A DNA stretch of 64,000 bases from Parcubacteria bacterium GBS-2 (GTDB lineage: Bacteria; Patescibacteriota; Minisyncoccia; Minisyncoccales; GBS-2). This document shows, piece after piece, positions 38,098 to 54,455 of this stretch. How positions within the stretch are numbered: position 1 is the first letter of the stretch; every line of letters begins with the position of its first letter. The DNA is taken from assembly GCA_001443025.1 (NCBI GenBank), contig LEKP01000001.1, positions 56 to 64,055 of the forward strand, read 5' to 3'. The notes under the pieces are model-generated. The model saw nothing but the letters and a program-made list of their open reading frames with translations. It searched no databases and was not told the DNA's origin. A program made the translations under genes and the position numbers.

Positions 38098-38107
38098 AGC
38101 TAATTTT

Positions 38108-38167
38108 CTAGTTAGTTGTCTGGTTTTCTAGTTATCTGGTTTGCTGGTTTTCTAGGTAGCTGGGTAA
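38108..38167 (+). repeat. Octamer array A: 8-bp-periodic CTRGTTWT repeats in the rny 3' region
   Basis: CTAG/CTGG at 38108, then 38120, 38128, 38136, 38144, 38152, 38160 (strict 8-bp phase). Confidence 0.85.
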
Positions 38168-38175
38168 TTCTTTAT

Positions 38176-38215
38176 TGCGGCCCAAGGTTTCATATTTTGA
38201 GCCGCATTTTTATTT
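38176..38215 (+). terminator. Candidate rho-independent terminator of rny
   Basis: TGCGGC (38176-38181) ... GCCGCA (38201-38206) followed by TTTTTATTTT. The loop is long (19 nt). Confidence 0.45.
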
Positions 38216-38300
38216 TAAGAAAAATATATTTGGTGAGGTTATAAATTAGGGCAATCGTCGTATTTTGTAACGGGTTGGAGAAGGAGTTTAATGCAAAATT

Positions 38301-38365
38301 TTTACAATGGGCAAGTGCTGGCGCGATAGCACCAGGGAGCGGAGCCCCAGGGGAGAGGGTGTTTG
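38301..38365 (-). ncRNA. Conserved tRNA-Gly 3' trailer element (copy 1)
   Basis: About 80 percent identical to 57475..57538 by hand alignment. Lies directly 3' of tRNA-Gly on the minus strand. Contains the hairpin CTGGTGC-TATC-GCGCCAG, which is pairable only in the minus-strand sense. Confidence 0.4.
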
Positions 38366-38436
38366 AGCGGGAGAGGGGAATCGAACCCCCGTACACGGCT
38401 TGGAAGGCCGTTGCATTACCACTATGCTACTCCCGC
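38366..38436 (-). tRNA. tRNA-Gly (anticodon UCC)
   Basis: Minus strand GCGGGAG..CTCCCGC plus U73. Anticodon stem ACGGC/GCCGT, loop CTTCCAA, T-loop TTCGATT. Confidence 0.9.
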
Positions 38437-38437
38437 T

Positions 38438-38508
38438 TCGGGGTGCTGGGAATTGAACCCAGTCCACATCCTCCCAAGGGATGCGTACTACCGTTATACT
38501 ACACCCCG
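38438..38508 (-). tRNA. tRNA-Pro (anticodon UGG)
   Basis: CGGGGTG..CACCCCG plus A73. Anticodon stem CATCC/GGATG, loop CTTGGGA, T-arm CTGGG-TTCAATT-CCCAG. 1-nt spacer to tRNA-Gly. Confidence 0.9.
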
Positions 38509-38514
38509 ATAAAA

Positions 38515-38574
38515 CCAGCAAACCAGAAAACCAGCCAGCCAAACGCCCAGCCAACCAGAAAACCAGCCAACTAA
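38515..38574 (-). repeat. Octamer array B (minus-strand CTGGTTTT sense), predicted 5' leader of the tRNA-Pro/Gly operon
   Basis: CCAG/CCAA on the plus strand at 38515, 38523, 38531, 38539, 38547, 38555, 38563, 38571 (8-bp phase). Ends 6 nt from the tRNA-Pro 5' end. Confidence 0.85.
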
Positions 38575-38577
38575 TTT

Positions 38578-38606
38578 TACTTATCATTTTCTTTTTTTTC
38601 AGTCAA
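38578..38606 (-). promoter_or_regulatory. Candidate promoter of the tRNA-Pro/Gly operon
   Basis: Minus strand TTGACT (38606-38601), 17 bp, TAAGTA (38583-38578). The predicted TSS would place the whole array B in the leader. The -10 is weak. Confidence 0.3.
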
Positions 38607-38621
38607 TTGTATAATTGAATA

Positions 38622-39560
38622 ATGAAGATTTTTGAACAACTAAACGTTCCAAAGCAATGCAAAAGATATGGACTTTCTCTTTGGCAATGCCCCTCTTTTT
38701 TATTTTTACTAATGGGAATAATTATTTGTCTAGTGTCAATAGTATCCTATCTTATTGGAACAAGATATATTGCAGAACCAAGGATTGTGGCATTAATAGT
38801 GTTAATAATCTCTATGATTTTATTAGCCCTTGCTACCATTATCACAAATTCTTTTGAAAGATTGGCCGAAGCAAACAGAATGAAATCAGAATTTATTAGT
38901 ATCGTTTCTCACCAGTTAAGAGCCCCTCTCTCAAATTTAACTTGGGTTATTGAGCTTTTAATGTCAGGAAGAGTAGGGAAAATTGAAGAAGAACAGGTGG
39001 AATATCTTAAAATTTTAAAAGAAAACTCAGACAGAATGAAAGATTTAGTCAAAGATCTTTTAATTGTTTCAAGAATTGAAAGCGCGAGACTTTCCCTCAG
39101 GAAAGAGGAATTTTCGCTAGAAGAGTTAACCAAAGAAATAATTAAAGAATTTGAACACTTTGCAAAAGCCTCAAATTGCCAAATTGAGTTTTCAGCTGAA
39201 AAAAATTTACCGAAAATTTTTGGTGATAGATACCAAATAAGGCAAGTGATTGAGAATTTATTAGATAATGCGATCCGGTATACTAAAGGGCGGGGAAAAG
39301 TAAAAATTAGGATAAAAAAAGAAAAAAAATTTATCCACTTTGAAATTGAAGATAATGGAATTGGAATTCCAAAGGAAGATCAAAAATTTATCTTCCAGAA
39401 ATTTTTCAGGGCTTCTAACGTTTTAAAATACAAAACTCAAGGAACTGGCCTTGGACTTTACATTGCAAAAGCAATAGTAGAAAGGTCGGGTGGCAAAATT
39501 GGCTTTAAAAGCCAAGAAGGAGCAGGATCTACCTTTTGGTTTAAACTCCCAATAAAATGA
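38622..39560 (+). CDS. Sensor histidine kinase (two TM segments, no obvious sensor domain)
   Basis: H-box FISIVSHQLRAPLS, N-box LLDNAIRYT, G1 IEDNGIGIP, G2 GTGLGLYIAK. TATAAT (38610-38615) lies 6 nt before the ATG. Confidence 0.9.
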   Translation: MKIFEQLNVPKQCKRYGLSLWQCPSFLFLLMGIIICLVSIVSYLIGTRYIAEPRIVALIVLIISMILLALATIITNSFERLAEANRMKSEFISIVSHQLRAPLSNLTWVIELLMSGRVGKIEEEQVEYLKILKENSDRMKDLVKDLLIVSRIESARLSLRKEEFSLEELTKEIIKEFEHFAKASNCQIEFSAEKNLPKIFGDRYQIRQVIENLLDNAIRYTKGRGKVKIRIKKEKKFIHFEIEDNGIGIPKEDQKFIFQKFFRASNVLKYKTQGTGLGLYIAKAIVERSGGKIGFKSQEGAGSTFWFKLPIK

Positions 39561-39925
39561 AAAAAATTTTATTCATAGAAGATGAATCTGCCTTACAAAA
39601 AACCTTCAGAGATATTTTAGAAAGGGAAGGCTATGAAATGATTTCAGCATTAGATGGAGAAAGTGGTTTAAGATTAGCAAAGACTCAAAAACCTGATTTA
39701 ATTTTGTTAGATTTAATACTGCCCAAAAAAGATGGGTTTGATGTGTTAAAGGAATTGAAAGAAAATGAAGCTACAAAAGAGATTCCGGTGATAGTTTTAA
39801 CAAACCTCGAAGAGATTGAATCTATAGAAAAAGCAATTGAGCTTGGAGCAACTACTTATTTAGTGAAAGCCCAATACACTTTAGAAGAAGTTATCCAAAA
39901 AGTAAAGAAAGCATTAGAAAAATAA
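39557..39925 (+). CDS. Stand-alone response-regulator receiver domain (CheY-like)
   Basis: 122 aa. FIEDE, phospho-acceptor context LILLDLILP, VIVLTN, KA. No output domain. Confidence 0.9.
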   Translation: MKKILFIEDESALQKTFRDILEREGYEMISALDGESGLRLAKTQKPDLILLDLILPKKDGFDVLKELKENEATKEIPVIVLTNLEEIESIEKAIELGATTYLVKAQYTLEEVIQKVKKALEK

Positions 39926-39926
39926 A

Positions 39927-41678
39927 ATGAAAGTAGAACCTCAGCAATTGAAAGCATTTATGATGGATGCGGGCCTAATTAGTGAAGAAAGGTTCGAAGA
40001 GTGTTTAAAAAAAGCTCAATCGAGGGGAATAAGGATCGAAGACATTTTGGTTTCAGAAGGAATAATCTCAGAGAACGATTTAAGAAAATTGGAGGCATAT
40101 ATTTTAGGAATTCCCTTTGTTGATTTAGAGAAAGAAACTATCGACCCTGAGGTTTTAAAAATTATTCCAGAGCCAGTTGCCAGAGCAAACAACATCGTTG
40201 CTTTTAGAAAAAAAGGGAATGATGTAGAAGTTGCGATGCTAGATCCTGAAGATCTGAGGGCGATTGAATTTTTAAAGAAGGCTTATCCAAATTTTAGAAT
40301 TTTGCCAAGATTGACCACACCAGAGTCGATAAAGCATGTTTTGAGACAATATCAGAAAACTTTGGAGGCAGAGTTTGGAGAGATAATTAAAAAAGAAGCA
40401 GGGGAAATAAAAACAATAAAGGAAGAAGAAAAAATTGAGGAAAAGGAAGAATTAGAAAAGATGGCAATGGAGCTTCCGATAATAAAGATTGTTGATACTT
40501 TGATAAAACATGCAATTTTGCAAAGGGCTTCTGACATCCACATTGAACCCATGGAGAAAGAAGTTTTAGTAAGATATCGCATCGATGGAATTTTGAGAGA
40601 TGCAATGACTTTACCAAAGATTGCAGCATCTGGGATCGTCGCAAGAATTAAAGTTCTTTCAAATTTAAGAATGGACGAACATAGACTTCCCCAAGATGGG
40701 AGATTCAAGGTAGAAACTCCAGAGTACAAATACTCAATCAGAGTTTCGGTTATGCCTGTGTTCGATGGAGAAAAAATTGTAATGAGGCTTTTACCAGAAA
40801 CTGCCCGAGGATTTACTCTAGAACAGCTTGGTTTTAGGGGGAAAGCTTTAGAAGATGTTCAGCTTAATTTAAGGAAGCCGGTTGGAATGATTTTGGTTTG
40901 CGGTCCCACAGGCTCTGGGAAAACCACTACTTTGTATTCAATGATTGAAATTTTAAATAATCCCGGTGTAAACATTTGTACAATTGAAGACCCAATAGAA
41001 TACAGAATGCCAAGAGTAAATCAAACTCAAGTAAACCCCAAAATTGGGTTAACTTTCGCTGCAGGACTAAGAGCTCTCCTTAGACAGGACCCTGATATCA
41101 TTATGGTTGGTGAAATTAGAGATAATGAAACTGCTTCTTTAGCAATTAATGCTGCTTTAACTGGTCATCTGGTTTTATCAACTTTACACACAAACTCTGC
41201 GGCTGGCGCAATTCCCAGATTGATTGATATGAAAGTTGAACCCTTCTTAATTGCTTCCACCTTAAATTTGATTATTGGACAGAGATTAGTTAGAAAAATT
41301 GCGGGAGAAAAGGAAAAATATTATTTAAAAGAAAGCGAATTAGACAACATCGCCAGATACTGTAATTTAGATAGAATTTTACAAATTTTAAGAGAAGAAA
41401 ATTTAATAAGACCTAATCAGCCTTTAACAAAAGTTCCTTTTTATCGCCCAAAACCTACCAAGGAATACCCGGATGGGTACAAAGGGAGAATTGGGATTTT
41501 TGAGGTTTTACCGGTTACTCAAACAATTAAGGAATTAATTGTTAAAGAGTCGAATATTGATGAGATTGAAGAACAAGCAAAAAAAGAAGGAATGAGAACA
41601 ATGGTTGAAGATGGATTTGTAAAAGCTGCTCTGGGAATAACTACCATCGAAGAAGTTTTAAGAGTAATTACTGAATAA
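39927..41678 (+). CDS. pilB: Type IV pilus assembly ATPase PilB/GspE family (copy 1, no tetracysteine motif)
   Basis: ASDIHIEP, RMDEHRLPQDGRF, Walker A GPTGSGKTTT, LRQDPDIIMVGEIRD, GHLVLSTLHTN. Confidence 0.9.
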   Translation: MKVEPQQLKAFMMDAGLISEERFEECLKKAQSRGIRIEDILVSEGIISENDLRKLEAYILGIPFVDLEKETIDPEVLKIIPEPVARANNIVAFRKKGNDVEVAMLDPEDLRAIEFLKKAYPNFRILPRLTTPESIKHVLRQYQKTLEAEFGEIIKKEAGEIKTIKEEEKIEEKEELEKMAMELPIIKIVDTLIKHAILQRASDIHIEPMEKEVLVRYRIDGILRDAMTLPKIAASGIVARIKVLSNLRMDEHRLPQDGRFKVETPEYKYSIRVSVMPVFDGEKIVMRLLPETARGFTLEQLGFRGKALEDVQLNLRKPVGMILVCGPTGSGKTTTLYSMIEILNNPGVNICTIEDPIEYRMPRVNQTQVNPKIGLTFAAGLRALLRQDPDIIMVGEIRDNETASLAINAALTGHLVLSTLHTNSAAGAIPRLIDMKVEPFLIASTLNLIIGQRLVRKIAGEKEKYYLKESELDNIARYCNLDRILQILREENLIRPNQPLTKVPFYRPKPTKEYPDGYKGRIGIFEVLPVTQTIKELIVKESNIDEIEEQAKKEGMRTMVEDGFVKAALGITTIEEVLRVITE

Positions 41679-43745
41679 TTAAACAAAATAGATTTTTCTT
41701 TTTCTAACTAAATTTTCTCTTAACTTCAAATATTTTCTTAAATTAGGATCTTCTTTCAGAATTTCTTTTGCATTTTCTCGTGCCAATTCAATTAAGCCCA
41801 AGTCGGTCAATTTTGCAACTTTTAGATCTAATTTACCAGTTTGTTTCTCTCCTAAAAGATCCCCAGGTCCTCTAATTTCCAAATCTTTTTCTGCAAGCTC
41901 AAAAGCATTATTTGAAGATAAAAGAGCTTCGATTCTTTGAGCTGATTTTTTAGTTGGCAAATGAGAAATCAAAAAACAAAAAGCTTTTTTTCCAGATCTT
42001 CCGATTCTTCCGATCAATTGATAAAGTTGAGCCAATCCAAACATTTCCGCATTCTGGATAACCAACACATTAACTTGAGGCAGATCAATTCCTTCTTCAA
42101 TTACATTAGTGGCGACCAAAATATCCAAAAATTTTTCTTCAAATTGCCTCATTACAATTTCTTTTTCTTTTGTACTCATTTTTCCATATAAAATTCCAAT
42201 TTTAAATTCAGGGAAAAATTTTTTGAGTAAAGAATGCTGTTCTTTCACAGTTTTTACTTCTGAAAAAAGCCTTCCTTTTTGGGAAAACTCAATTCGGGGG
42301 CAAACAAAGAAAACCTGCTCCCCTTCTTCTATTTTTTCTTTGATAAATTCCAAAACCATCTTTTCTTCTTTTGGTAAAACGACTTTAATTTCTATTTCTC
42401 TTTTTCCACAAGGCAATTCTTTGAGTAAAGAAATATCTAAATCTCCAAAAATTGTTAAGGCTAAAGTTCTAGGAATCGGTGTTGCGGTCATTGACAAAAA
42501 ATGAGGTAAAATTTTTTGTTTCTCCAAAAGTTTTCTTCTTTGTTCAACTCCAAATTTGTGTTGCTCATCAAAAATTAAAAGAGCTAATTTTTGAAATTCT
42601 ATCTTTTCTTCAAAAAGAGAATGTGTGCCGATTAAAATCTTAACCCCCCCTTCTTTAATTTTTTTAATCATTTCTTCTTTCTTGAGCTTCTTTCCAGCGA
42701 ATTCAGAATACCCCTTTGTTAAAATGCCGATTCTTTTTTCAAAAGGTTCTAACATTCGAAAAATTTTTCTATAATGCTGGGCCGCTAAAATTTCTGTGGG
42801 AGCAATCATTGCTGATTGATAATTATTTTTTGCGCAGTTCAAGGCTAAAATTGTTGCCACTAAAGTTTTTCCAGAGCCCACATCCCCTTGCAATAACCTA
42901 TTCATAGGAACACTTTTTTCCATCTCTTTTAGCATTCTCCAAGTTTCTTTTTTTTGAGATTCAGTTAATTCAAAAGGCAAAGACTTTATAAACTCCTTTA
43001 TCGCTTCAACTTGAATTTTTAAGGGATAAGCCCTTTTCTTTTTAACTTTTAATTTCTCCCTTAAAACTTCAATTTCTAGTAAAAAGAGTTCTTCAAAAGC
43101 AAACCTAAACCTCGAAATTTTAATATCCTCTTTTGTTTCTGGAAAATGGATTTTTAAGATTGCCTCTTTTAAGGGAACTAAATTTAGTTTTTTTAAAATT
43201 TTTTCTGGTAAAAATTCTCTTGCTCTCCAAATTTCATTTTTCAACACCAAAGAAATCTTCTCTCTTATCCATTTTGTAGTAATTCCCTTTGTTTCAGGAT
43301 AAATTGGAATGATTTTTCCGGTATGTAAAAGATTAAAGTGGGGAATTTTTGGGATTTTTTCAAAAACAGGGTGCTGTAAATAAAAATAACCCTTCTTTTG
43401 TACAATTTTTCCAGAAAAAGAGAAAAACTCTCCTTTTTTGAAAACGTTTTTTAGAAAGGGTTGGTTATAAAAAACCGCTTTAATTCTTGAAGAAGAGTCA
43501 GAAATTTCAATTTCAGTTAAAATTTTTCCTCCTCTCAAGAATAAATTTTTAATACTTTCTATCTTCCCTTGAATGGTTAATGGAATTCCAATCTCTGCCT
43601 CAGAAATTTTTGAAATTTTTGAAAAATCTTCATACTTATTAGGGAAGTAATAAAAACAATCCTCGATCGTCTCTATGCCCAATTTTTTTAATCTTGTAAT
43701 CTCTCTCTTTTTTAGATAATTCAAACTCTCAATTTTTTCTTCCAT
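41679..43745 (-). CDS. recG: ATP-dependent DNA helicase RecG
   Basis: LQGDVGSGKTLVA (Walker A), DEQHKFG, MTATPIPRTL, GRIGRSG. The stop abuts the pilB stop with zero spacing. Confidence 0.9.
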   Translation of the reverse strand: MEEKIESLNYLKKREITRLKKLGIETIEDCFYYFPNKYEDFSKISKISEAEIGIPLTIQGKIESIKNLFLRGGKILTEIEISDSSSRIKAVFYNQPFLKNVFKKGEFFSFSGKIVQKKGYFYLQHPVFEKIPKIPHFNLLHTGKIIPIYPETKGITTKWIREKISLVLKNEIWRAREFLPEKILKKLNLVPLKEAILKIHFPETKEDIKISRFRFAFEELFLLEIEVLREKLKVKKKRAYPLKIQVEAIKEFIKSLPFELTESQKKETWRMLKEMEKSVPMNRLLQGDVGSGKTLVATILALNCAKNNYQSAMIAPTEILAAQHYRKIFRMLEPFEKRIGILTKGYSEFAGKKLKKEEMIKKIKEGGVKILIGTHSLFEEKIEFQKLALLIFDEQHKFGVEQRRKLLEKQKILPHFLSMTATPIPRTLALTIFGDLDISLLKELPCGKREIEIKVVLPKEEKMVLEFIKEKIEEGEQVFFVCPRIEFSQKGRLFSEVKTVKEQHSLLKKFFPEFKIGILYGKMSTKEKEIVMRQFEEKFLDILVATNVIEEGIDLPQVNVLVIQNAEMFGLAQLYQLIGRIGRSGKKAFCFLISHLPTKKSAQRIEALLSSNNAFELAEKDLEIRGPGDLLGEKQTGKLDLKVAKLTDLGLIELARENAKEILKEDPNLRKYLKLRENLVRKRKIYFV

Positions 43746-43774
43746 ACTCTCAATTTTATGTTAAAATTTAAATA

Positions 43775-44986
43775 ATGCCAAAGTACTCTTTTTTAGCAAA
43801 ATCTTTGGAAGGAAAAACGGAGAAAGGAATTTTGGAAACAAAAGATGAATTTGAATTGGCAAAGATTTTAAGAGAAAAAGGGTTGATTTTAATTAAGGCA
43901 GAAAAAGAAAGAGAAAAGAAAAGGCTAAAAATTCCTCTTTTTTCTTTGGGGGTCCCCCTTTCTGAAAAAATGTTTTTTACAAGAAATTTAAGGGTAATGA
44001 TATCTGCTGGAGTTTCTTTACCGAGAGCAATTTTAAGTTTATCTGAACAAACGAAAAATAAAAAATTTAAAAATGCTCTACAGAAAATTGCAGAAAGGAT
44101 TGTCAAAGGGGAGAAATTTTCAGATGCTCTTTCTTATTTCCCTCAAATTTTTAATGAATTTTATCAAAACATGATCAAAGTTGCTGAAGAAACCGGGAAG
44201 TTAGAGGATGTTTTGGGAATTTTAGCAACCCAGATGGAAAGAGAGCATGAATTGAGATCAAAAATTAAAGGAGCAATGATTTATCCAGCAGTAATAGTTT
44301 GTGCCTTAATTGGGGTTGGTGTTTTAATGCTTGTAATGGTAGTTCCAAAATTGGCTGAAACTTTTAAAGAGTTAGGGGTAGAGTTGCCAATGACAACAAG
44401 AATTGTAATTTCTCTGGGAACTTTTTTAGAAAAAAACTTTTTAATTTTACTTATTTCTTTCATTGTTTTAATCTTCTTTTTCTTCCAATTTTTAAAAACG
44501 AAAGTTGGAAAAAGGATTTTTGATAAAATTTCCCTCTTTCTCCCAATTTTTTCTTCTTTGGTTAAAAAATCAAACTCAGCATCAACTGCCAGATCTTTGA
44601 GTTCTTTAATTTCTGCGGGAGTTTCTTTGCCAAGAGCTCTAGAAATTACCGCAAATACTTTAGGAAACGTTTTTTATAAAGAAGCATTATTAACTAGTGC
44701 AGAAGCAGTGAGAAAAGGAGGAAAATTGTCTGAAAGCTTAAAACCTTATCAAAAAATTTATCCACTGACTCTAATTTCGATGCTTGCGGTTGGAGAAGAA
44801 ACTGGAGAAACTTCGGAGGTTTTGGCAAAAATTGCTGATTTTTATGAAAGCGAAGTAACAGATGCAGCAAAAAACTTAACTTCTGTTATTGAACCAATTT
44901 TAATGTTGATTATTGGAGCTGCGGTTGGATTTTTTGCAATTTCGATGGTTCAACCAATGTATTCGATGCTTGGTGCGATTAAATGA
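43775..44986 (+). CDS. pilC: Type IV pilus platform protein PilC (GspF family)
   Basis: Two GspF repeats (MISAGVSLPRAI...; LISAGVSLPRALE), 3 TM segments, EPILMLIIGAAVG. Confidence 0.9.
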   Translation: MPKYSFLAKSLEGKTEKGILETKDEFELAKILREKGLILIKAEKEREKKRLKIPLFSLGVPLSEKMFFTRNLRVMISAGVSLPRAILSLSEQTKNKKFKNALQKIAERIVKGEKFSDALSYFPQIFNEFYQNMIKVAEETGKLEDVLGILATQMEREHELRSKIKGAMIYPAVIVCALIGVGVLMLVMVVPKLAETFKELGVELPMTTRIVISLGTFLEKNFLILLISFIVLIFFFFQFLKTKVGKRIFDKISLFLPIFSSLVKKSNSASTARSLSSLISAGVSLPRALEITANTLGNVFYKEALLTSAEAVRKGGKLSESLKPYQKIYPLTLISMLAVGEETGETSEVLAKIADFYESEVTDAAKNLTSVIEPILMLIIGAAVGFFAISMVQPMYSMLGAIK

Positions 44987-46743
44987 ATTTTCAATATCCA
45001 ACTTTCAATTTTAAAAAATCAAAGAGTTTTACCTTAACCGAAGTTTTAATTACTATTTTTTTAGTTTCGGTTATTTTTTTAGGAATTTTTGGTGCTTATC
45101 AACTTGGATTAAAAGTTGTTGGTTTGTCAGAAAGAAAAATCACAGCTACTCAAATTGCTCAAGGAGAAATTGAAAAAATCAAAAACATGCCTTATTTGGA
45201 TGTTGGAACGATCGGAGCCAAAGCTCCTTATGCTTCGGGAACTTTGGAAGCTTCAACCTCAACGATTTTAAACGGTATTGAATATAAAATTGAAAGAAAA
45301 GTGAGGTTAATTTCTGATGCTTCAGATGGTGATGAAGAATGTTTAATAGATTACAAGAGAGTTGAAATTAAAGTCTCTTTTTCTGGGATCTTAAAAGGAG
45401 AAGTGATTTTAACAGCAGACATTATGCCAAAAAGCAAAACCGAAGAAATAGCAATTTGTCAAACCCAACCTATTGGAATTATCTCTGTTCAAGTGTTAAA
45501 TGCTATTGGTCAATTCGTCAATTCCCCAACGATCGAAATTTACGATTCTCAAAAAAATTTGATAGGAATTTTTTCACCTTTTGAAGGAAAAGATGATATC
45601 CCTTTAGAACCTGGAAGTTACAAAGTAATCGTTTCAAAAGAGGGTTATTCGAGAGAAGAAACTTTTTCTATTGAAGAGATTGCCATTCCTGAAAAGCCAA
45701 ACCCAACAGTTTTTGAAAACCAAATCACCCAAATTTCCTTTAATATCGATAAACTCTCTTCAATGGAAATTAAAACCTTAAGTACTTACAGTCAAGGAAT
45801 TTTTTCAGATTCGTTTTTAGATGAAAGCAAAATTTCTCAAAAGGAAAATTTGATAGTTGAAGCAGGCCAGGTAAATTTGGCAACTAATACCGAAGGTTAT
45901 TTACCTTTTGGTTACCTTTTTTCAATCGAAATTTCACCTCAAAATTTGATTAAATGGGAAAGTTTTTCTTTTACTGATGAAGAGCCCCCAGATACTGATT
46001 TAAAATACCAAGTTTATTTTGCTTCAGGAACTGAGTGGTTTTTAATTCCAGATTCTGATTTACCAGGAAACTCACAAGGTCTTGAGCAAAGTCCTGTCGA
46101 TTTATCTAATCTTTCAACTACTACCTATTCTTCTTTAAAACTAAAAGCCAACTTTTCAACGAATTCAACCTCTCAAACTCCAATTCTTTATGATTGGCAA
46201 GTTTCTTGGCAAAGTTCAAATCCAGTTCCCATTCCAGAGGTTAGCTTTAATTTAAAAGGGGAGAAAATTTTGGGAAAAGATGCTGAGGAGAATTTAATCT
46301 ATAAATACTCAACAACTACCCAAACCAATCCTCAAGGCCAAATTCAAATTTCAAACTTGGAATGGGATACTTATTACTTTTCAGATTTTCAAAAAGATTC
46401 TCAGAGCTTAGAATTGATAAATTCTTCTCTTGAACTTCCAGTTTCTTTACCTCCAGATACTAACTTGAACTTAGATCTTTATCTTGAAAGCCAAAATTCC
46501 CTTTTGATTTCAGTTTACGATTCAGAAACCCTAAATCCAATTTCTTTTGCAACCGCTACTCTATCGAGTGTAAATTTTGAAAAAATTGAAATTACCAATT
46601 TAAACGGGCAGGCAATTTTTATTCCTTTGGATTCAAAAAATTATAATCTTTCAATAGAAGCTCAAGGATATTATTCGACCTCAACTACCCTCTTTGTCTC
46701 TGGAAAAACAACCAAAATTATAAAATTGGAACCAAGAGACTAA
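44983..46743 (+). CDS. Giant pilin-like protein with beta-sandwich (CarboxypepD_reg-like) repeats
   Basis: N-terminal class III signal-like KSKSFTLTEVLITIFLVSVIFLGIFGAY (FTLxE plus hydrophobic helix). Later GSYKVIVSKEGYSREE and NYNLSIEAQGYYSTS repeats. Confidence 0.7.
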   Translation: MNFQYPTFNFKKSKSFTLTEVLITIFLVSVIFLGIFGAYQLGLKVVGLSERKITATQIAQGEIEKIKNMPYLDVGTIGAKAPYASGTLEASTSTILNGIEYKIERKVRLISDASDGDEECLIDYKRVEIKVSFSGILKGEVILTADIMPKSKTEEIAICQTQPIGIISVQVLNAIGQFVNSPTIEIYDSQKNLIGIFSPFEGKDDIPLEPGSYKVIVSKEGYSREETFSIEEIAIPEKPNPTVFENQITQISFNIDKLSSMEIKTLSTYSQGIFSDSFLDESKISQKENLIVEAGQVNLATNTEGYLPFGYLFSIEISPQNLIKWESFSFTDEEPPDTDLKYQVYFASGTEWFLIPDSDLPGNSQGLEQSPVDLSNLSTTTYSSLKLKANFSTNSTSQTPILYDWQVSWQSSNPVPIPEVSFNLKGEKILGKDAEENLIYKYSTTTQTNPQGQIQISNLEWDTYYFSDFQKDSQSLELINSSLELPVSLPPDTNLNLDLYLESQNSLLISVYDSETLNPISFATATLSSVNFEKIEITNLNGQAIFIPLDSKNYNLSIEAQGYYSTSTTLFVSGKTTKIIKLEPRD

Positions 46744-46744
46744 A

Positions 46745-47779
46745 ATGAAAATTCCAAATTTCAAATCCCAAATTCCAAATTTAAAATTCAAAAAGGGATT
46801 TACCTTAACTGAGGCAATCGTTGCAATTTTTGTTTTTTCTCTTTTGATGGGAGCAATTTCAGCAACGATTTTAATTTTATATCGAACCCATTCTTACGAG
46901 TGGCAACAATCGATTGCTATTGAAGAAGCAAGAAGGGGGATTGAAACGATGGTAAAAGAAATTAGAGAAGCAAGAGAGGGAGAAAACGGAGCTTATCCCA
47001 TAGAATATGCTGGAGATAAAGAATTCGTTTTTTATTCAGATATTGACAACGATGGAAAAACAGAAAGGGTAAGATACTTTTTGGGAAAAATCGAAACTGA
47101 AAATTTTTTTGATGAATGTCAAAGCAACCAAAAAGGGGGATCTTGCTCGGTTAGTTTTTCAAATTTTATTAAAGAAAATGGAAAAGTAATCTCGGCAATT
47201 TTGAAAGTTACAGCTAGGGGAGATCTAGATAGCATCTATGAGTATTTAACGATTTCGGTAAACGGTCAAGAATTGGAAGATAAAATTTGCCAAACAGGAT
47301 GTTCTCAATGTCCCTTGAATTTTGAGGGAATGAAAACTTTCGATATTACTGATTTTGCAAAAACTGGTTCAATTACAATTTTGGCAAAAGCATCTTGCCC
47401 AAACCCCAACAAAGAATCAAGATGCGTCGATGTCATTTGCGATTCAAACACAATTTCTTTTAAAGCAAGGTTTGAACTCTCAATCACTCAAGAAGTTCAA
47501 ACAACTGAATTGAAAAAAGGAGTAATAAAAGCAATAGGAGACCCACCAACTTATCCTTTAGACCAAGAAAAAGTTTCAGTAATTACTTCTTATGTCAGAA
47601 ATTCACCTCCAATTTTTGAATACTTTGATCAAAACGGAAATAAAATTATAGACTATCCAGCAAGATTAAAAGATACTAAAGTAATGAAAGTTTTTTTAGT
47701 GATTAATGTTGATCCAAATCGACCTCCTACTGAATTTCAATTGGAATCTTTTGTGCAATTGAGGAATTTAAAAGAATGA
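46745..47779 (+). CDS. Cys-rich minor pilin/pseudopilin (PilW/GspJ-like position)
   Basis: KFKKGFTLTEAIVAIFVFSLLMGAI prepilin motif. About 10 Cys in the globular part. Confidence 0.7.
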   Translation: MKIPNFKSQIPNLKFKKGFTLTEAIVAIFVFSLLMGAISATILILYRTHSYEWQQSIAIEEARRGIETMVKEIREAREGENGAYPIEYAGDKEFVFYSDIDNDGKTERVRYFLGKIETENFFDECQSNQKGGSCSVSFSNFIKENGKVISAILKVTARGDLDSIYEYLTISVNGQELEDKICQTGCSQCPLNFEGMKTFDITDFAKTGSITILAKASCPNPNKESRCVDVICDSNTISFKARFELSITQEVQTTELKKGVIKAIGDPPTYPLDQEKVSVITSYVRNSPPIFEYFDQNGNKIIDYPARLKDTKVMKVFLVINVDPNRPPTEFQLESFVQLRNLKE

Positions 47780-49278
47780 AAAAAGGGTTTACCACAAGCT
47801 ATGTTTTAGTTTTTGGAATGATTTTTCTAATAATGCTTGCTGGTCTTTTGGGTTTTATTTTAACTCAATTGAAAATTTCAAAACAAAAAATAGCCTGGCA
47901 CGAAGCTTTAAACATTGCAGAAGCTGGCTTGGAATACTACAAATGGTGCATAAACAATAATATCGAAAACTGTTCCACAACCAAAACTTATTATGACCTT
48001 TCTGGAAAAGCAATTGGAAAGTTTGAAATTCAATTTGAAAGCAACCAAAACTGCGGAAAACTCATTTCCCAAAAAATAGTTTCTACGGGTTACACTTTCG
48101 ATTTTCCTAATATAAAAAGAAAAATTGCTACTTTTTACGGCAGAGAATCAGTCGCTAAATATTCTTACATTTTAAACTCCAACGTTTGGGTCGATTCAGA
48201 CCACGTCATTAAAGGACCTTTTCACTCAAACGGAGGAATTAGGTTTGATGGAACGAATTATTCTACGGTTTCTTCTGCCCAATCTAGTTGGGTTTGCACT
48301 TCTTCTTTTGGTTGCGGTCCTCAGGGAGTAGGTTATGGATTGGGGCTTTGTCTTCCAGAGTGCCAAATTATAAACCAAAAATGCATTTGTCCTGGAGTAT
48401 TTTCAACTACCCAAAATTCAAACAGAGATCTCTTTTTATACCCTACTTCTCAATTTGATTTTGCAGGCATTAGCGTAGATTTGGCTCAGGTCAAAAAAAT
48501 TACTAAAGACGATGGATTGGGTTTGTATTTTGGACCCTCTGGCGCTTATGGTTACCACATTTTCATTAACGGCGATTACCTCATTGTCAAAAGAGTGACT
48601 CAAGTTAGAATGATTGACGATCTTTGCACAATAGTGAACGATAAAATAATCTGTCAAGGAGACCCTTGCACTTCAGAATGCACTCGATGCCAATCTGGAA
48701 AATGCATTGTCGAAGAACCAGTTATTAAATCTGAAATAGATCTTGGGACTTTTCAAATCCCTTCAGATTGTGGAGCAATCTTTTTTGAAGACAATCTTTG
48801 GGTAGGAAGCGAAAATCAAACTAGTAGCATAAGAGGAAAAATAACGATTGTTTCTGCCAATTTAACTGGTACCCCTCAAAAGACAAACATTTGGCTCCAA
48901 GGAAGCATCGAATATGCAAGCTCTAGCCAGTTTGATGGTTTGACCATAATTTCCCAAAACAACCTTTTGGTCGGACTTTATTCTCCAAACGTTATGAATT
49001 TGAAGGGAATTTTTGTTGCCCAAAACGGATTTTTTGGAAGGAATTATTATCCTTGTTCTAAATATTCGCCCTATTGCAAAAGAGATTTCTTATCAATTAC
49101 AGGTTCGATCGTTTCTTCAGGAAGGGTTGGAACAAAATGGACTGGTTCTGGAGGACAATTTGTTTCTGGTTATCAAAATCGAGAAACCTATGTTGATTCA
49201 AATTTGCTTTACAATCCTCCAATTTTCACTCCTTTTTTATCTTTTGAATTTAAAATTGTTAAATGGGAAGAACTTTAA
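47776..49278 (+). CDS. Large Cys-rich PilX-like pilus-associated protein
   Basis: MKKGFTTSYVLVFGMIFLIMLAGLLGFIL (pilin-like N-terminus lacking Glu5). More than 20 Cys, e.g. CLPECQIINQKCICPG and CQGDPCTSECTRCQSGKC. Confidence 0.55.
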   Translation: MKKGFTTSYVLVFGMIFLIMLAGLLGFILTQLKISKQKIAWHEALNIAEAGLEYYKWCINNNIENCSTTKTYYDLSGKAIGKFEIQFESNQNCGKLISQKIVSTGYTFDFPNIKRKIATFYGRESVAKYSYILNSNVWVDSDHVIKGPFHSNGGIRFDGTNYSTVSSAQSSWVCTSSFGCGPQGVGYGLGLCLPECQIINQKCICPGVFSTTQNSNRDLFLYPTSQFDFAGISVDLAQVKKITKDDGLGLYFGPSGAYGYHIFINGDYLIVKRVTQVRMIDDLCTIVNDKIICQGDPCTSECTRCQSGKCIVEEPVIKSEIDLGTFQIPSDCGAIFFEDNLWVGSENQTSSIRGKITIVSANLTGTPQKTNIWLQGSIEYASSSQFDGLTIISQNNLLVGLYSPNVMNLKGIFVAQNGFFGRNYYPCSKYSPYCKRDFLSITGSIVSSGRVGTKWTGSGGQFVSGYQNRETYVDSNLLYNPPIFTPFLSFEFKIVKWEEL

Positions 49279-49297
49279 ATTGAGGTATAATTGAAAT

Positions 49298-50383
49298 ATG
49301 GAGTTTTTATCTTTAAAACCAAAAGCTTTTGGATTGGATATTTCTGATTTATCTTTGAAATTTTTGATGTTAGAAAGGAAAAGAAGAAATTTTTCAGTGA
49401 GTTTTTTTGGAGAAAGAGAAATTGAGCCTGGAATAATTGAGGGTGGGGAAATAAAAGAAGAGGAAAAGTTGGTAAAAATACTTAAAGAAGTGGCAAAAAA
49501 AGCAAAAACGAAATATGTTGTAGCTTCTTTACCAGAAGAAAAAGCATTTTTACAGGTTATCAAAATGCCCTTGATGTCAGAAGAAGAATTGAGGTCCGCG
49601 ATTGTCTTTGAGGCAGAAAGTTATGTTCCAATACCAATAAATGAAATCTATCTAGATTGCGATATTGTTCCTTCTTTACAGAACCATTCTAAAAATTTAG
49701 ATGTACTTTTAGCAGTGGTTCCAAAAAAAATAGTTGATTCTTATTTGAGGGTTCTAAAAAACGCTGGATTAACACCAATTATCTTTGAAGTTGAATCTTT
49801 AGCCATTGCAAGAGCTTTAATAAAGGATCAATTTACAAATTATTCTGTTTTGATTATTGACCTGGGGGCGACTAGAACTTCTTTTATTATTTTTGCTGGA
49901 AAATCAGTAAGGTTTACTTGCTCTATTCCAGTCTCTGGAATTCATTTCACTGAACTAATCGCAAAGGCGTTAAACGTGAGTTTTGAAGAAGCAGAAAAAT
50001 TAAAAATCACTCATGGTTTGAAAGAAGGGTTAAAAATTAAACTTGGAGAGCAGACAATAGTTGAAAAAATAAAGGGGAAGACCTTTGAAGCTTTGATCCC
50101 AGGATTAGTTGATTTGGTTCAGCAAATTAAAAGATACCTTGATTATTATCAGGCCCATTGTTCTTCTTTTGATCTTCCTTCCGAAATTGGCAAGGTTAAA
50201 AAGATTATTCTTTCTGGAGGAGGAGCAAATCTTGCTGGTTTGAGTGATTTTCTAGAATTGGAAATAGGGATTCCTGTGGAAATTGGGAATCCTTGGATTA
50301 ATATTGGAGAAACAAAAAATTTCCCAAAAGAAAAGTCATTAGCTTTTACAACCGCAATCGGCCTAGCTCAGCAAGGAATATGA
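49298..50383 (+). CDS. pilM: Type IV pilus assembly protein PilM (actin-like ATPase fold)
   Basis: FGLDISDLSLKFL, IIDLGATRTSF, ILSGGGANLAGL. Confidence 0.85.
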   Translation: MEFLSLKPKAFGLDISDLSLKFLMLERKRRNFSVSFFGEREIEPGIIEGGEIKEEEKLVKILKEVAKKAKTKYVVASLPEEKAFLQVIKMPLMSEEELRSAIVFEAESYVPIPINEIYLDCDIVPSLQNHSKNLDVLLAVVPKKIVDSYLRVLKNAGLTPIIFEVESLAIARALIKDQFTNYSVLIIDLGATRTSFIIFAGKSVRFTCSIPVSGIHFTELIAKALNVSFEEAEKLKITHGLKEGLKIKLGEQTIVEKIKGKTFEALIPGLVDLVQQIKRYLDYYQAHCSSFDLPSEIGKVKKIILSGGGANLAGLSDFLELEIGIPVEIGNPWINIGETKNFPKEKSLAFTTAIGLAQQGI

Positions 50384-50901
50384 TTAATCTATTGCCCCCA
50401 GAACAAATAAAGGAATTAAAAGAACAAGAGAATTTTAAAATTCTTGTGAACATTTTTTTATTAATTTTATTTTTTCTTTTTTCCTTTTTTTTAATTCTGC
50501 TTTCAATTAAATTTTATCTATCTGGTAAGCTAGAATCTCAAAAAATTCTTCTTGAAAAGGGAGAAAGAATTTTAGACTTAGAAAAAGAAAAGAAAATCAA
50601 AAAATACAATGAGATTTTATCCCGAATTGAAAATTTTTACCAAAAAAAGATTTCACTTTTCCCAAAGGCAGAGAATTTTTTTGAAAAAATTCCCCCCGCG
50701 ATTTATTTGAATGAATTTGAACTTAAAATAGATAAAAAAGGAGAAATTTCTTTTTGGGTTTTAGGCTTTTCAAAAACTAGAGAAAACTTTTTAGATTTAA
50801 TAAAAATTTTAAAAGACAATTATAAAGAAGTTTCTTTCCCTCCAGAAATTCTTTTGAAAGAAGCTGAGATAAATTTTTCAATTAGTTTCAAAATAAAATG
50901 A
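50380..50901 (+). CDS. pilN: PilN-like bitopic protein
   Basis: MINLLPPEQ start typical of PilN, single TM. ATGA coupling to pilM. Confidence 0.7.
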   Translation: MINLLPPEQIKELKEQENFKILVNIFLLILFFLFSFFLILLSIKFYLSGKLESQKILLEKGERILDLEKEKKIKKYNEILSRIENFYQKKISLFPKAENFFEKIPPAIYLNEFELKIDKKGEISFWVLGFSKTRENFLDLIKILKDNYKEVSFPPEILLKEAEINFSISFKIK

Positions 50902-51440
50902 GCCCAAAAAGAAAAATAATTTTATCTTCAATTTTCTTTTTAATCTTTTTTCTTTTAATTTTTCTTTTCCTGATTTTCCCAACTTTGAAGGAACTAAAAA
51001 GGATTTCGAGAGAGATTCTTCAAACTAACCTAAAGTTGGAAGAAATTGAAAGACGTCAAGAAGAAATTGAGAAATTCAAAAAACTTCCCTCAGAGATTAA
51101 AGAAAATTTATCAAAATTTGAAAATTTTCTGGTTAATAAAGAGATTCCTATAGATTTTGTTGAATTTTTGGAAAAAATGGCAAAAGATTTAAATATCCAA
51201 AGCCAAATTTCAATTTCAAGTTTCTCAAAAGACAGCATTTCCTTTCAAATTAAAGGGGTAAGTTCTCCAGAAAATGTTTTTAAATTTATTGAGAAGGTTG
51301 AAAATTGTAATTATTTGACCCAAATCGAAAAAATAAGAATCTCTAAACTGACTGAATCTGAATTAAAAAGGGAAGAGTTTAAGGAATTTTCAAAAAACGA
51401 TTTAAAATTTGAAATTTTCTTTTCGGTTTTAACAAAATGA
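50898..51440 (+). CDS. pilO: PilO-like bitopic protein
   Basis: N-terminal TM plus coiled coil, by position after pilN. ATGA coupling. Confidence 0.55.
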   Translation: MSPKRKIILSSIFFLIFFLLIFLFLIFPTLKELKRISREILQTNLKLEEIERRQEEIEKFKKLPSEIKENLSKFENFLVNKEIPIDFVEFLEKMAKDLNIQSQISISSFSKDSISFQIKGVSSPENVFKFIEKVENCNYLTQIEKIRISKLTESELKREEFKEFSKNDLKFEIFFSVLTK

Positions 51441-51718
51441 GAATCAAAATGAGAAAATTAAAAAACTTTGTAAAAAAACTACCAAGAATTTTGGTGGAGA
51501 GATTTATTTTGACTTTACTTTTCCTTTTAATCTTAGCCTTTTCTCTGGGTCTTTTGGTCTTTAAAGTTTCAATCTCATTTAAAGAAAAAAAGTTTCCTAA
51601 GATTGAAACATTTAATGAAAATCTTTATCAGAAGGTATTGGAAAAAATTAGAGAACGAGAAAAGAAATTTGAGGAAATTAACCAAAAAATTTATCTCAAC
51701 CCCTTCGAGGAAAAATAA
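51437..51718 (+). CDS. Small bitopic protein with C-terminal NPF motif (fourth member of the pilMNO unit)
   Basis: 93 aa, one TM, ends ...YLNPFEEK. Counterpart at 61696..61995 ends ...RENPFLPIK. Confidence 0.5.
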   Translation: MRIKMRKLKNFVKKLPRILVERFILTLLFLLILAFSLGLLVFKVSISFKEKKFPKIETFNENLYQKVLEKIREREKKFEEINQKIYLNPFEEK

Positions 51719-51721
51719 AAT

Positions 51722-51795
51722 GGTGGCCGACGCGACTCGAACGCGCAACCACCTGGGCCACAGCCAGGCGCTCTGCCAATTGAGCTACGGCCACC
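51722..51795 (-). tRNA. tRNA-His (anticodon GUG) with encoded G-1
   Basis: Minus strand G(-1)GTGGCCG..CGGCCACC (8-bp acceptor including G-1:C73). Anticodon stem CCTGG/CCAGG, loop CTGTGGC. T-loop TTCGAGT. Confidence 0.9.
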
Positions 51796-51796
51796 G

Positions 51797-51869
51797 TGTC
51801 CCCGCTGGGAGTCGAACCCAGATCTCAGGCTTAGAAGGCCCGTGCTCTATCCATTTGAGCTACGGGGAC
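51797..51869 (-). tRNA. tRNA-Arg (anticodon UCU)
   Basis: GTCCCCG..CGGGGAC plus A73. Anticodon stem CGGGC/GCCTG, loop CTTCTAA. T-arm CTGGG-TTCGACT-CCCAG. 1-nt spacer to tRNA-His. Confidence 0.9.
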
Positions 51870-51874
51870 TTTGA

Positions 51875-51926
51875 CCAGAAAACCAGATAACTAGAAAGCC
51901 AGAAAACTAGCCAACCAGCCAACTAT
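51875..51926 (-). repeat. Octamer array C (minus-strand CTGGTTTT sense), predicted 5' leader of the tRNA-Arg/His operon
   Basis: CCAG/CTAG on the plus strand at 51875, 51883, 51891, 51899, 51907, 51915, 51923 (8-bp phase). Ends 5 nt from the tRNA-Arg 5' end. Confidence 0.85.
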
Positions 51927-51930
51927 ACTA

Positions 51931-51958
51931 ATTTTACCAGAAATTTTTAAAAGATCAA
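51931..51958 (-). promoter_or_regulatory. Candidate promoter of the tRNA-Arg/His operon
   Basis: Minus strand TTGATC (51958-51953), 16 bp, TAAAAT (51936-51931). The predicted TSS near 51924 makes array C the leader. Confidence 0.45.
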
Positions 51959-52999
51959 CTATTTTTTCTCTTCTAATTTTACTTTAAGATGAATTTCCTC
52001 TCCCTTTCCTTCCATCCAACCTCTTAAAATCTTAAATTCAATTTCATCGCCAACTTTGTGCCTTGAAAGAATATCCGCTAAAGTATTATCCTCAGTGATT
52101 TTTTCTCCGTCAGCCTCCAACAAAATATCATCCTCCTTTATTCCAGCTTTTTCTGCAGGAGAATTTTTAACTACAGCTCTTTCGCCAAAACTTTCTCTGG
52201 TTACCAAAGCCCCATAATCTACCGGAAGTTTATAAAGCTTTGCTAAATTTTCATTCAAAATCACATACCTTACTCCCAAAAATGGCCTTCTAATTTTTCC
52301 AAATTTCATTACTTCTTCCAAAATTGGCTTTGCATAGTTTATTGGAATTGCAAAGCCGATGTTTTCTGCCCCCATTACCATCGCAGTGTTAATTCCAATA
52401 ACCTTTCCCTCCATATTCACTAAAGGGCCTCCTGAATTTCCAGGATTGATTGCTGCATCAGTCTGAATTAGACCTCTCAAACTTGTTGCTTTAAAAGGAA
52501 TTCCTCCATAGGCTGTAATTTTTCTGGATAATCCAGAAACTATTCCTGCAGAAATTGTATCTTCAAATTCTCCTAAAGGATTTCCAATTGCCAAAACTTG
52601 CTCTCCCAACTCAACTTTATTTGAATCACCTAATTCCAAATAGGGTAAATTTTTTCCATCGATTTTTAAAACTGCAATATCAACTAAAGGATCTCTTGCC
52701 AAAACTTTTGCTTTAAATTTATTTTTTGGATCCAAAATTACAGTATAATCTGCAATCGGATCTGAAACTACATGGTTGCAAGTTAAAACATAGCCATCTG
52801 GCGAAACTATAAATCCAGATCCCCCTCCAACTTTTGTTTTTTCTTTTTCTTTTTTAAACTTTGGAAAGATGAATTCTTCACCCCAAAGAGGAAACAAATA
52901 AAAACCTTCAATTTTTGGAAGGTCTTTAGTAATAACAATGGTAATTACCCCAGGGCAGACTTTTTTGGCAATTTCGACAAAAGGTCCTTTGTTTGTCAT
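51959..52999 (-). CDS. htrA: HtrA/DegP-family serine protease with PDZ domain
   Basis: GSGFIVSPDGYVLTCNHVV (His), DIAVLKI (Asp), GNSGGPLVN (Ser), C-terminal PDZ (PAEKAGIKEDDILL). Confidence 0.9.
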   Translation of the reverse strand: MTNKGPFVEIAKKVCPGVITIVITKDLPKIEGFYLFPLWGEEFIFPKFKKEKEKTKVGGGSGFIVSPDGYVLTCNHVVSDPIADYTVILDPKNKFKAKVLARDPLVDIAVLKIDGKNLPYLELGDSNKVELGEQVLAIGNPLGEFEDTISAGIVSGLSRKITAYGGIPFKATSLRGLIQTDAAINPGNSGGPLVNMEGKVIGINTAMVMGAENIGFAIPINYAKPILEEVMKFGKIRRPFLGVRYVILNENLAKLYKLPVDYGALVTRESFGERAVVKNSPAEKAGIKEDDILLEADGEKITEDNTLADILSRHKVGDEIEFKILRGWMEGKGEEIHLKVKLEEKK

Positions 53000-53112
53000 G
53001 GATTCATTTTATCATCAATTCCTCTTGTCAACAAGGAGAAAATTGAATAAAATACTTTATCCTCAATTTATAACCCATTTCAGTCAATTGGATAAAGCAA
53101 ACTTGTCCTAGA

Positions 53113-53141
53113 TTGAATTGGTATTTCGCTTGCAGTATAAT
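53113..53141 (+). promoter_or_regulatory. Near-consensus sigma70 promoter with leaderless spacing
   Basis: TTGAAT (53113-53118), 17 bp, TATAAT (53136-53141), 6 nt to ATG 53148. Confidence 0.55.
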
Positions 53142-53147
53142 TGAGTA

Positions 53148-53822: not shown

Positions 53823-53843
53823 GTTCAATTCCTATCGGGGGCA
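53772..53843 (+). tRNA. tRNA-Arg (anticodon CCU)
   Basis: GCCCCCG..CGGGGGC plus A73. Anticodon loop CTCCTAA (stem GCGGA/GCCGC with an A31-G39 mismatch). T-arm ATAGG-TTCAATT-CCTAT. Confidence 0.8.
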
Positions 53844-53853
53844 CAAGGATTTA

Positions 53854-54303
53854 ATGGAGAACTTATCAATCGAAAAATTCAATCCCCTGAACCTGAACGA
53901 AATTTTAGAAATAGAGAGGAATGCTTTTGAAAAGAAAGAAACCTTTCCTAAAGAGTACTTTTTAGAAGTTTTTAAAAAGTGGCCGGAGGGATTTTTAGTA
54001 GCAAAGATAAATAAAGAAATTGTTGGTTACGCTATTGGCGAAAAAAATGAAAACTCAGGACTGATTATTTCAGTAGCAGTAAAAAAAGAATGGAGGAGAA
54101 AGGGAATAGGAAGAAAATTAATTGAAAAATTATTAGAAAATTTTAAAAAAGAGGGAATGAAAATGATTTTTTTGCACGTTAGAGAGGAAAACAAAGAAGC
54201 GATTAATTTTTATCAGGCATTGGGTTTTAAAATCATAGAATTGGTTGATAATTATTATTCAAATGGAGAAAATGCATATTTGATGGAAAGGACATTGGGC
54301 TAG
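53854..54303 (+). CDS. rimI: GNAT-family N-acetyltransferase (RimI-like)
   Basis: VAVKKEWRRKGIGRKLIEKLL (acetyl-CoA motif A). Starts 10 nt after the tRNA; AAGGA lies 4 nt before the ATG. Confidence 0.8.
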   Translation: MENLSIEKFNPLNLNEILEIERNAFEKKETFPKEYFLEVFKKWPEGFLVAKINKEIVGYAIGEKNENSGLIISVAVKKEWRRKGIGRKLIEKLLENFKKEGMKMIFLHVREENKEAINFYQALGFKIIELVDNYYSNGENAYLMERTLG

Positions 54304-54345: not shown

Positions 54346-54370
54346 CTACCCTATGGAGAGCGGAAAGAAA

Positions 54371-54445: not shown

Positions 54446-54455
54446 ATATTAAGGG

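Follow-up and report, generated by a model that had tools for sequence, protein, structure and literature searches.

Probable inverted copies of a modular tRNA-leader element behind the tRNA-Gly genes of Parcubacteria bacterium GBS-2

Two similar trailers follow the tRNA-Gly genes in a 64,000-nucleotide stretch of the Parcubacteria bacterium GBS-2 genome (the window, to which coordinates refer unless a contig is named). In our opinion, each trailer is probably the end nearest the tRNA of a GC-rich modular element that is specific to the clade and carries no genes, here present as a partly decayed copy in inverted orientation; the element behaves as a cassette of ~200 nt. The element occupies ~12 loci in this genome, is patchily distributed (four of six family genomes carry it) and shows an insertion/deletion difference within a species. 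A first-pass annotation of the window had described the trailer as a conserved companion of tRNA-Gly with a strand-specific hairpin, from which a stable RNA might arise. This reading is right in that the trailer is conserved and goes with tRNA-Gly, that its hairpin is genuine and that it is no canonical terminator, and it fails insofar as a dedicated, strand-specific RNA was supposed. Nor does the trailer appear to be tRNA-Gly's own: it seems to be an inverted member of a multi-copy element whose other copies stand before other tRNAs. A full-text literature search found no description of such a feature.

The genome (G000 in our set; 659 kb, 33% GC, 94% complete, 7 contigs) has its source in hot-spring metagenomes, and the 12 sequencing runs for the organism are all of DNA (hot-spring and sediment metagenomes, besides runs labelled as single organisms). 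The tRNA genes were called with ARAGORN and Rfam, and the flanks of all 37 tRNAs of the genome were compared. At gathering scores Rfam recognised only tRNAs in the window, and the trailer matched no family. A permissive Rfam scan of four element-rich loci gave tRNAs and RNase P RNA as the credible matches, with the others far under their gathering scores.

The two trailers and their parent element

Both tRNA-Gly genes of the window lie on the minus strand, and neither encodes its CCA. The tRNA-Gly(UCC) gene (38365/6-38436; ARAGORN, and Rfam tRNA at 72.3 bits) has tRNA-Pro(UGG) directly before it (38437-38509), and the tRNA-Gly(GCC) gene (57539-57610; ARAGORN and Rfam) is the final one of an Arg-ORF-Ala-(elements)-Phe-Gly run. 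The hand count of about 80% identity between the trailers was borne out by pairwise alignment, with 52 of the 64 columns after the tRNA identical (81%). The tRNA bodies are indeed less alike than the trailers (53/72, 74%), and identity drops to 31% over the next 80 columns. A 25-mer core of the trailer occurs exactly twice in the window, against 0.00 occurrences expected from 100 shuffles. The similarity extends beyond 65 nt, with remnants of the element reaching ~38277. On a different contig, tRNA-Gly(CCC) is followed by a third copy, and tRNA-Leu(GAG) is preceded by a similar sequence in the opposite orientation.

Read outward from tRNA-Gly(UCC), copy 1 begins with a Gly-specific C-rich junction (CAAACACCCTCTCCCCTGG; 38347-38365, minus strand; conserved in 26 aligned trailers), which leads from the tRNA tail to the inverted element and forms, together with that tail, the direct repeat bounding the units described below. 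It is followed by a purine-rich linker (GGAGCGGAGCC; 38336-38346, plus strand), which the nhmmer profiles identify as homologous to the GGAGAGGCGAGCGA that ends the sense leader copies, and by hairpin H4 (38318-38335), with a 7-bp stem and a 4-nt loop that reads GATA on the plus strand and UAUC on the minus strand. Farther out, comparison with the orthologous copy of genome G002 and with the leader copies revealed decayed remnants of hairpin H3 (TGCAAAATTTTTACA) and of a 5' module (GGAGAAGGAG) at 38277-38317 (plus strand). Copy 2 consists of its junction (TTGACACCCTTCCCCTGG; 57521-57538, minus strand) and the remainder of a decayed inverted element (57475-57520, plus strand), in which linker and hairpin are kept and H3 is lost; its H4 occupies 57492-57509. 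The hairpins are as first described, with one U-G/G-U pair on the minus strand in copy 1 and three in copy 2, whose plus-strand counterparts are C-A/A-C mismatches. Several tRNA operons are flanked by phased octamer arrays (CTGGTTTT/CCAGAAAA type; window 38100-38160, 38515-38575, 51875-51958 and 56917-56964), which form a repeat class distinct from the GC-rich element.

In sense orientation, the parent element was recognised immediately before tRNA-Leu(CAG), tRNA-Lys, tRNA-Ala(UGC), tRNA-Thr(UGU) and tRNA-Leu(GAG), and variants of it precede tRNA-Phe and tRNA-Tyr. It is composed of module M1 (AGGAAGAGGGGTGACAGCG, hairpin H1, GAGCGCCA), module M2 (a long GGGGAACC..GGTTCCCC hairpin) and module M34 (GAGCCGAAGC, hairpin H3, GCGCC, hairpin H4, GGAGAGGCGAGCGA), and its end lies 0-4 nt from the mature 5' end of the tRNA. 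Two tandem sense copies leading tRNA-Phe (57691-57944, minus strand) serve as the family reference within the window. On contig C3 (28034-28360; locus L014), an ORF that resembles ribosomal protein L33 by eye lies directly after tRNA-Thr(GGU) and is followed by a full sense element, tRNA-Ala(UGC) and 23S rRNA, which is an unusual content for the spacer of an rRNA operon.

An nhmmer profile was built from five leader copies only, and module profiles were run separately. The leader profile matched the plus strand, antisense to the tRNA, both behind tRNA-Gly(CCC) (E=8e-9) and at C1:38350-38400(+), that is, window 38295-38345, where the match reaches into the linker of tRNA-Gly(UCC) (E=3.5e-5); the match at tRNA-Gly(GCC) was weak (E=0.096 over window 57475-57518). 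The module profile gave E=6.9e-5 at window 38282-38345(+) and again a weak match, E=0.2, at 57485-57518. As these matches are antisense to tRNA-Gly, the trailer corresponds to the H4-plus-linker end of an inverted copy; with weak profile evidence, copy 2 is assigned to the family mainly by its 81% identity to copy 1. The window copies thus belong to the modular tRNA-leader element of the clade, of which they keep H4, the linker and remnants only, the outer modules being missing in both. Their mutual likeness is explained by their being recent copies of one repeat, and the loss of the closing helix (see below) and of the outer modules indicates that they are probably relics, not working parts.

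Linkage to tRNA-Gly and turnover of the units

The inverted orientation was found at all three tRNA-Gly genes of the genome, in a sister genus (G002) and on ~25 distinct hot-spring contigs, as would be expected of the conserved, tRNA-Gly-linked feature that had been proposed. The metagenome loci comprise tRNA-Gly genes of the UCC, GCC and CCC types, and most of them contain M34, M2 and M1. They were collected with a pattern of a tRNA-Gly tail followed by CACCCT, which returned 81 stretches (~40 of them low-GC hot-spring contigs), and frequencies within this set are biased because the pattern demanded CACCCT after the tRNA. A scan of genome contigs with the junction pattern gave 25 matches, 24 of which were chance occurrences in GC-rich genomes and one of which, in G002, was real. 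At this orthologous Pro-Gly(UCC) locus, the inverted element is complete, and a pseudo tRNA-Gly tail of 15 nt leads from it to a second unit. A recent local duplication in this genome, with no wider meaning, could be read from the 81% identity of the window copies and from their being more similar to one another than to any further copy. That reading is hardly credible against the same arrangement at three Gly isoacceptors, in another genus and on ~25 contigs with diverged sequences; the trailer is thus not absent from relatives.

Specificity for glycine is seen both in the junction and in the position of the element. A conserved C-rich junction (CACCCTCNCCCCT) connects the inverted element to the tRNA end, and its portion N2-4 CACCCT(C/T)(A/T)CCCCT is the most conserved part of the 26 aligned trailers; no covariation of the variable base of the tRNA tail with the junction was seen by eye. 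In a survey of this genome together with 57 low-GC loci, the element was found to touch tRNAs with its 3' end in two ways: at the 5' end of sense tRNAs (Ala, Ser, Leu, Lys, Val, Thr and Pro), or at the 3' end of antisense tRNAs, which was the case for Gly only (16 cases). An inverted element lies at most 40 nt downstream of 14 of 43 tRNA-Gly genes and of none of 147 other tRNAs, and at most 120 nt downstream of 21/36 tRNA-Gly genes as compared with 5/133 others, those five adjoining such units; the search pattern and relatedness both introduce a bias into these numbers. The element is sometimes missing from tRNA-Gly(GCC) genes on the same contigs that were not ascertained by the pattern.

The units behave as cassettes. 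In eight contigs, 2-3 of them follow one another as an array whose period is 193-228 nt, each unit being bounded by ATTTTCTCA+TCCCCTCTCCCGCT and containing no ORF. A unit ends in ATTTTCTCA and a 14-nt copy of the tRNA-Gly tail, after which the next junction begins. A direct repeat of the tRNA 3' end, 14 nt long (up to ~31 nt with the junction), hence bounds every unit of the eight arrays, as in an att-type duplication. The units were also searched for the tRNA tail in inverted form, but the best match had 5-7 mismatches of 14, no better than shuffles. A difference in unit number was seen in contig L089, from the same species, which agrees with the window base for base through tRNA-Pro and tRNA-Gly and over more than 200 nt beyond them. 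It differs by a single added base in the trailer and by one additional intact unit of 198 nt between the tRNA and the trailer of the window, bounded by an exact direct repeat of 23 nt (~31 nt with one mismatch). The tRNA-proximal unit at this locus is intact, and the distal one is the window's decayed copy. Units would thus be gained, lost and stacked by recombination between the direct repeats formed by the last 14 nt of tRNA-Gly and the junction. Contigs of four DNA runs, compared with window 38150-58100, contained joints of 38317/38349 to 57808/57824 on opposite strands; we did not count them, since they fit alleles with further inverted modules and may also be assembly crossings at repeats.

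No recombinase tied to the element was found. The single tyrosine recombinase of the genome, a Phage_integrase match at C2:72605-73123, is far from any tRNA-Gly, no TnpB or reverse transcriptase was found, and the element-bearing contigs contained no RAYT homologue. The genome does have two Y1_Tnp genes, flanked by other palindromes (ATGTTGACGTC...GACGTCAACAT and GGCAACGTTTGACGTTGCC) and not by this element. A more ambitious proposal is that the units are gene-less structured cassettes inserted site-specifically at the tRNA-Gly tail by a putative recombinase. The enzyme would recognise a single strand in its folded state, whose borders are conserved and whose closing helix is free in sequence and kept in pairing, as in attC; the crossover would be the G-quadruplex-prone repeat of tail and junction, and the trailer RNAs could pair with leaders. 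We consider this proposal improbable.

A RAYT-like Y1 transposase ORF of 240 aa at window 3102-3824 (PF01797 at 32.8 bits) has the palindrome ATGTTGACGTC(A/T)GACGTCAACAT on both sides (2992-3910), which makes a REPtron-like locus in a 659-kb genome; the downstream copies reach the 5' end of tRNA-Ala(CGC) at 3916. Its paralogue at C2:92400-93560 is 68% identical and has the other flanking palindrome (GGCAACGTTTGACGTTGCC), one copy of which lies in frame inside the ORF. In the same region of the window (2342-2866, 3990-4200 and 4206-4445) we noted by eye a HicB/HicA-like pair of small ORFs and a GIY-YIG-like ORF of 79 aa after tRNA-Ala(CGC), with ~31-nt tandem repeats (CGCTAAAGCTTCGGAGTGTGAACACTCTA) between them. 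A further hairpin, CTCTTACAGATTTTT(G/A)CCATGGCAAAATTATGTAAGAG, recurs at window 2935-2975 and at 440-490 of contig L088, where it replaces the GC-rich unit after a pseudo tRNA-Gly tail and junction.

Fold, strand and transcription

The trailer hairpin is a true helix, as had been supposed: over 26 trailers 96.5% of its cells are paired, 18 cells have changed on both sides, and none of 500 shuffles does as well. In intact Gly-linked copies H4 is part of a larger fold. Behind the junction comes a hypervariable segment of 10 nt, for which 18 of 26 trailers offer a pairing partner at a distance of 55-87 nt downstream (at most one mismatch, with at most 1 of 200 shuffles as good), although at least nine different sequences of this segment occur. 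The closing helix so formed encloses H4 and H3 in a three-way junction, and folding of 15 copies gave this structure as the minimum-energy one every time. Both window copies fail the closing-helix test, and the G002 copy is also without the helix. The 71-nt trailers folded alone gave z-scores of -1.7 to +0.2 over both strands, from which little can be read. The conservation of several helices by covariation, together with that of the junction, suggests selection for the fold, which could reflect a host function instead of selfish spread.

The strand-specific reading of the helix was rejected. Among the 26 trailers, H4 has six G-U cells on the tRNA strand (four of them contributed by the two window copies) and four on the other strand, so that the claim that the helix survives only in minus-strand RNA is not sustained. 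When all hairpins are counted, there are 7 G-U and 8 A-C cells in 32 inverted copies, and 12 and 14 in 43 sense copies. These counts bear directly on the idea of a working 3' external transcribed spacer RNA, in which a hairpin-bearing C/U-rich fragment would persist after tRNA excision and act as a small RNA or sponge. The position of the trailer immediately behind the tRNA with no terminator between, the high conservation of the junction and the four of four informative changes in the window copies that give G-U on the tRNA strand are all consistent with it. Nevertheless, we think that such an RNA is quite unlikely, as G-U cells occur on both strands in the larger samples, truncated relics are all that the window contains, the set of units changes within a species, and sister genera are without the trailer.

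The opposite strand has also to be considered. The polarity of the element is kept when it is inverted, with the purine-rich linkers on the strand opposite tRNA-Gly; by our own count, G-N-N-A loops occur on that strand in ~16/27 copies and never on the tRNA strand. Moreover, the strand opposite the tRNA folds better in all 15 three-way-junction domains, by about 0.3-8 kcal/mol, and inside the arrays a conserved TGAGAAAAT, which resembles an extended -10, stands ~20-30 nt upstream of M1. These features would fit a gene of ~170 nt for a small RNA, transcribed in the direction of the tRNA-Gly end, whose 3' end would be the complement of the tail plus the junction. However, a search of the plus strand upstream of the two window copies gave no promoter-like site, the polarity may be simply inherited from the sense copies, and the folding advantage is given little weight because a G-rich strand outfolds its complement trivially through G-U pairs. 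A functional gene on this strand therefore seems to us decidedly unlikely.

In the sister genomes G001, G004, G005 and G006, a terminator-like hairpin with a T run lies within a few nt of the tRNA-Gly end. The same scan found no terminator-like site on the minus strand behind the tRNA-Gly genes of the window, and no U tract follows the trailer hairpins, in agreement with the remark that the trailer is not an obvious intrinsic terminator. According to the inverted-element reading that we prefer, the unit would have docked inverted at tRNA-Gly through its C-rich junction, at the place where sister genera hold the terminator. Given that place and the absence of a terminator after the tRNA, the trailer is most likely co-transcribed with tRNA-Gly as a structured 3' trailer, and would be cut off at the discriminator base. 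Rho-dependent termination was also considered, the trailer being C-rich, yet no Rho was found: Rho_RNA_bind (PF07497) had no match in the 94% complete genome, and it matches in 9 of 14 control genomes. A C-rich Rho loading site is therefore unlikely.

The junctions have a further property that could be relevant to polymerase pausing or to recombination: the genome contains only five potential G-quadruplex motifs with four G runs (runs of at least three G, loops of up to 9 nt), and three of these are tRNA-Gly tail/junctions on the antisense, that is template, strand. In the window they comprise the junction and the complement of the tRNA-Gly tail at 38350-38378 (plus strand) and the corresponding stretch at 57524-57551 (plus strand); the third lies at C3:133776-133803. 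It might be proposed that the inverted element stands in for a lost intrinsic terminator, its GC-rich hairpins or a template-strand G-quadruplex stopping or pausing the polymerase and shielding the tRNA 3' end. Its location at the exact place of the sister genera's terminator agrees with this, and so do the share of the genome's motifs held by these junctions and a strong promoter-like site for the next gene immediately after the GCC trailer (TTGACA-17-TATGAT, 11 of 12 positions, at 57437-57465 on the minus strand, beginning ~10 nt past the trailer and serving a 157-aa gene at 57430-56957). On the other side, the hairpins have no U tract behind them, no Rho was found, and two of the four G runs are present in any tRNA-Gly. 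Furthermore, the inverted element at tRNA-Gly(CCC) lies between two co-oriented tRNAs and leaves too little space for a promoter before tRNA-Thr(CGU); polymerase must therefore pass, and the element cannot be a strict stop signal. We regard the substitute-terminator role as unlikely.

The same locus contains a probable RNase P RNA (C3:134244-134590, minus strand; 87.5 bits against a gathering score of 100) directly upstream of tRNA-Gly(CCC), so that RNase P RNA, tRNA-Gly(CCC), inverted element and tRNA-Thr(CGU) follow each other on one strand. The genus of G006 has no inverted element at its tRNA-Gly(CCC)-tRNA-Thr(CGU) spot, and its contig L024 holds there a pseudo tRNA-Gly 3' half (GGGGGTTCGATTCCCCTCACTCGCTC; 372-414).

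Being leaders in inverted form, the trailers show strong complementarity to those of other tRNA operons. Between the Gly(UCC) trailer and the leader of Leu(GAG), the predicted duplex has an energy of -96 kcal/mol, versus about -55 for shuffles; between the Gly(CCC) trailer and the leader of Ala(UGC) it reaches -195 kcal/mol, versus about -87. Since the Gly trailers are antisense to the leaders of at least six other tRNA operons, trailer RNAs could pair with leaders. RNase III is encoded in the genome and RNase P RNA is present; if trailer-leader duplexes form, RNase III could couple tRNA maturation across operons.

Known repeats and the meaning of the element

REP/BIME mosaics and REPINs of proteobacteria are mobilised by RAYT, a Y1 transposase of the IS200/IS605 type. 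Like the element studied here, they are short, GC-rich imperfect palindromes arranged in mosaics, extragenic, multi-copy and variable between close relatives. They are co-transcribed with neighbouring genes, as the tRNA-Gly element would be according to our reading. The many strain-variable palindromes expected of such a family are thus present, but not a RAYT flanked by the same palindromes, as the RAYT-like genes of this genome are accompanied by other, AT-richer ones. Unlike REP sequences, the element abuts tRNA ends to the nucleotide, possesses a long-range co-varying helix and a three-way junction, and is bounded at tRNA-Gly by copies of the tRNA tail.

The last feature recalls the integrative elements that target tRNA genes, which leave direct repeats of the tRNA 3' end and whose gene-less derivatives are known as CIMEs and satellites. 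Here too, a direct copy of the tRNA 3' end, starting near the T loop, marks the border of each unit, and units stand in tandem beside an intact tRNA with the outer ones more decayed; the differences are a size of ~200 nt, the lack of any gene or integrase, and a cargo that is the very repeat preceding other tRNAs. With the attC sites of integrons the element shares the cassette-like arrangement and the conserved outer sequences around a helix of free sequence and kept pairing, but it has no integron integrase, no GTTRRRY core and no cargo genes, and it docks at a tRNA end. The 3'ETS-leuZ of the Escherichia coli glyW-cysT-leuZ operon is comparable in that it, too, trails a tRNA operon at the 3' end and could outlast processing, whereas the present trailer belongs to a repeat family found in both orientations and has no strand-specific pairing. 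Modular, hairpin-forming and gene-less repeats are also known as BOX in Streptococcus pneumoniae and as GC clusters or double-hairpin elements in fungal mitochondrial DNA. The mitochondrial clusters are GC-rich islands in a small AT-rich genome, often beside tRNA genes. BOX and the mitochondrial clusters are unrelated to the element in sequence and host, and no tRNA-tail repeats or specificity for Gly are described for them. All in all, we think that the element works most like REP/BIME or BOX mosaics combined with the att duplications of tRNA-targeting islands, although the marks that define known classes, namely a cognate RAYT, an integrase or a U tract, are missing.

Genomes of ~0.6 Mb are thought to be stripped of nearly all repeats. 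A lineage with a genome of this size nevertheless retains a complex folded element without genes, placed with nucleotide precision at tRNA ends. The element precedes many tRNAs in one orientation, follows only tRNA-Gly in the opposite one, and varies within a species in its number of units. The comparison also corrects the tempting reading of two local copies as a strand-specific RNA hairpin. With the tail repeats, the junction and the three-way junction defined, the locus offers a testable case for how such an element moves and how it affects the transcription and processing of tRNAs.
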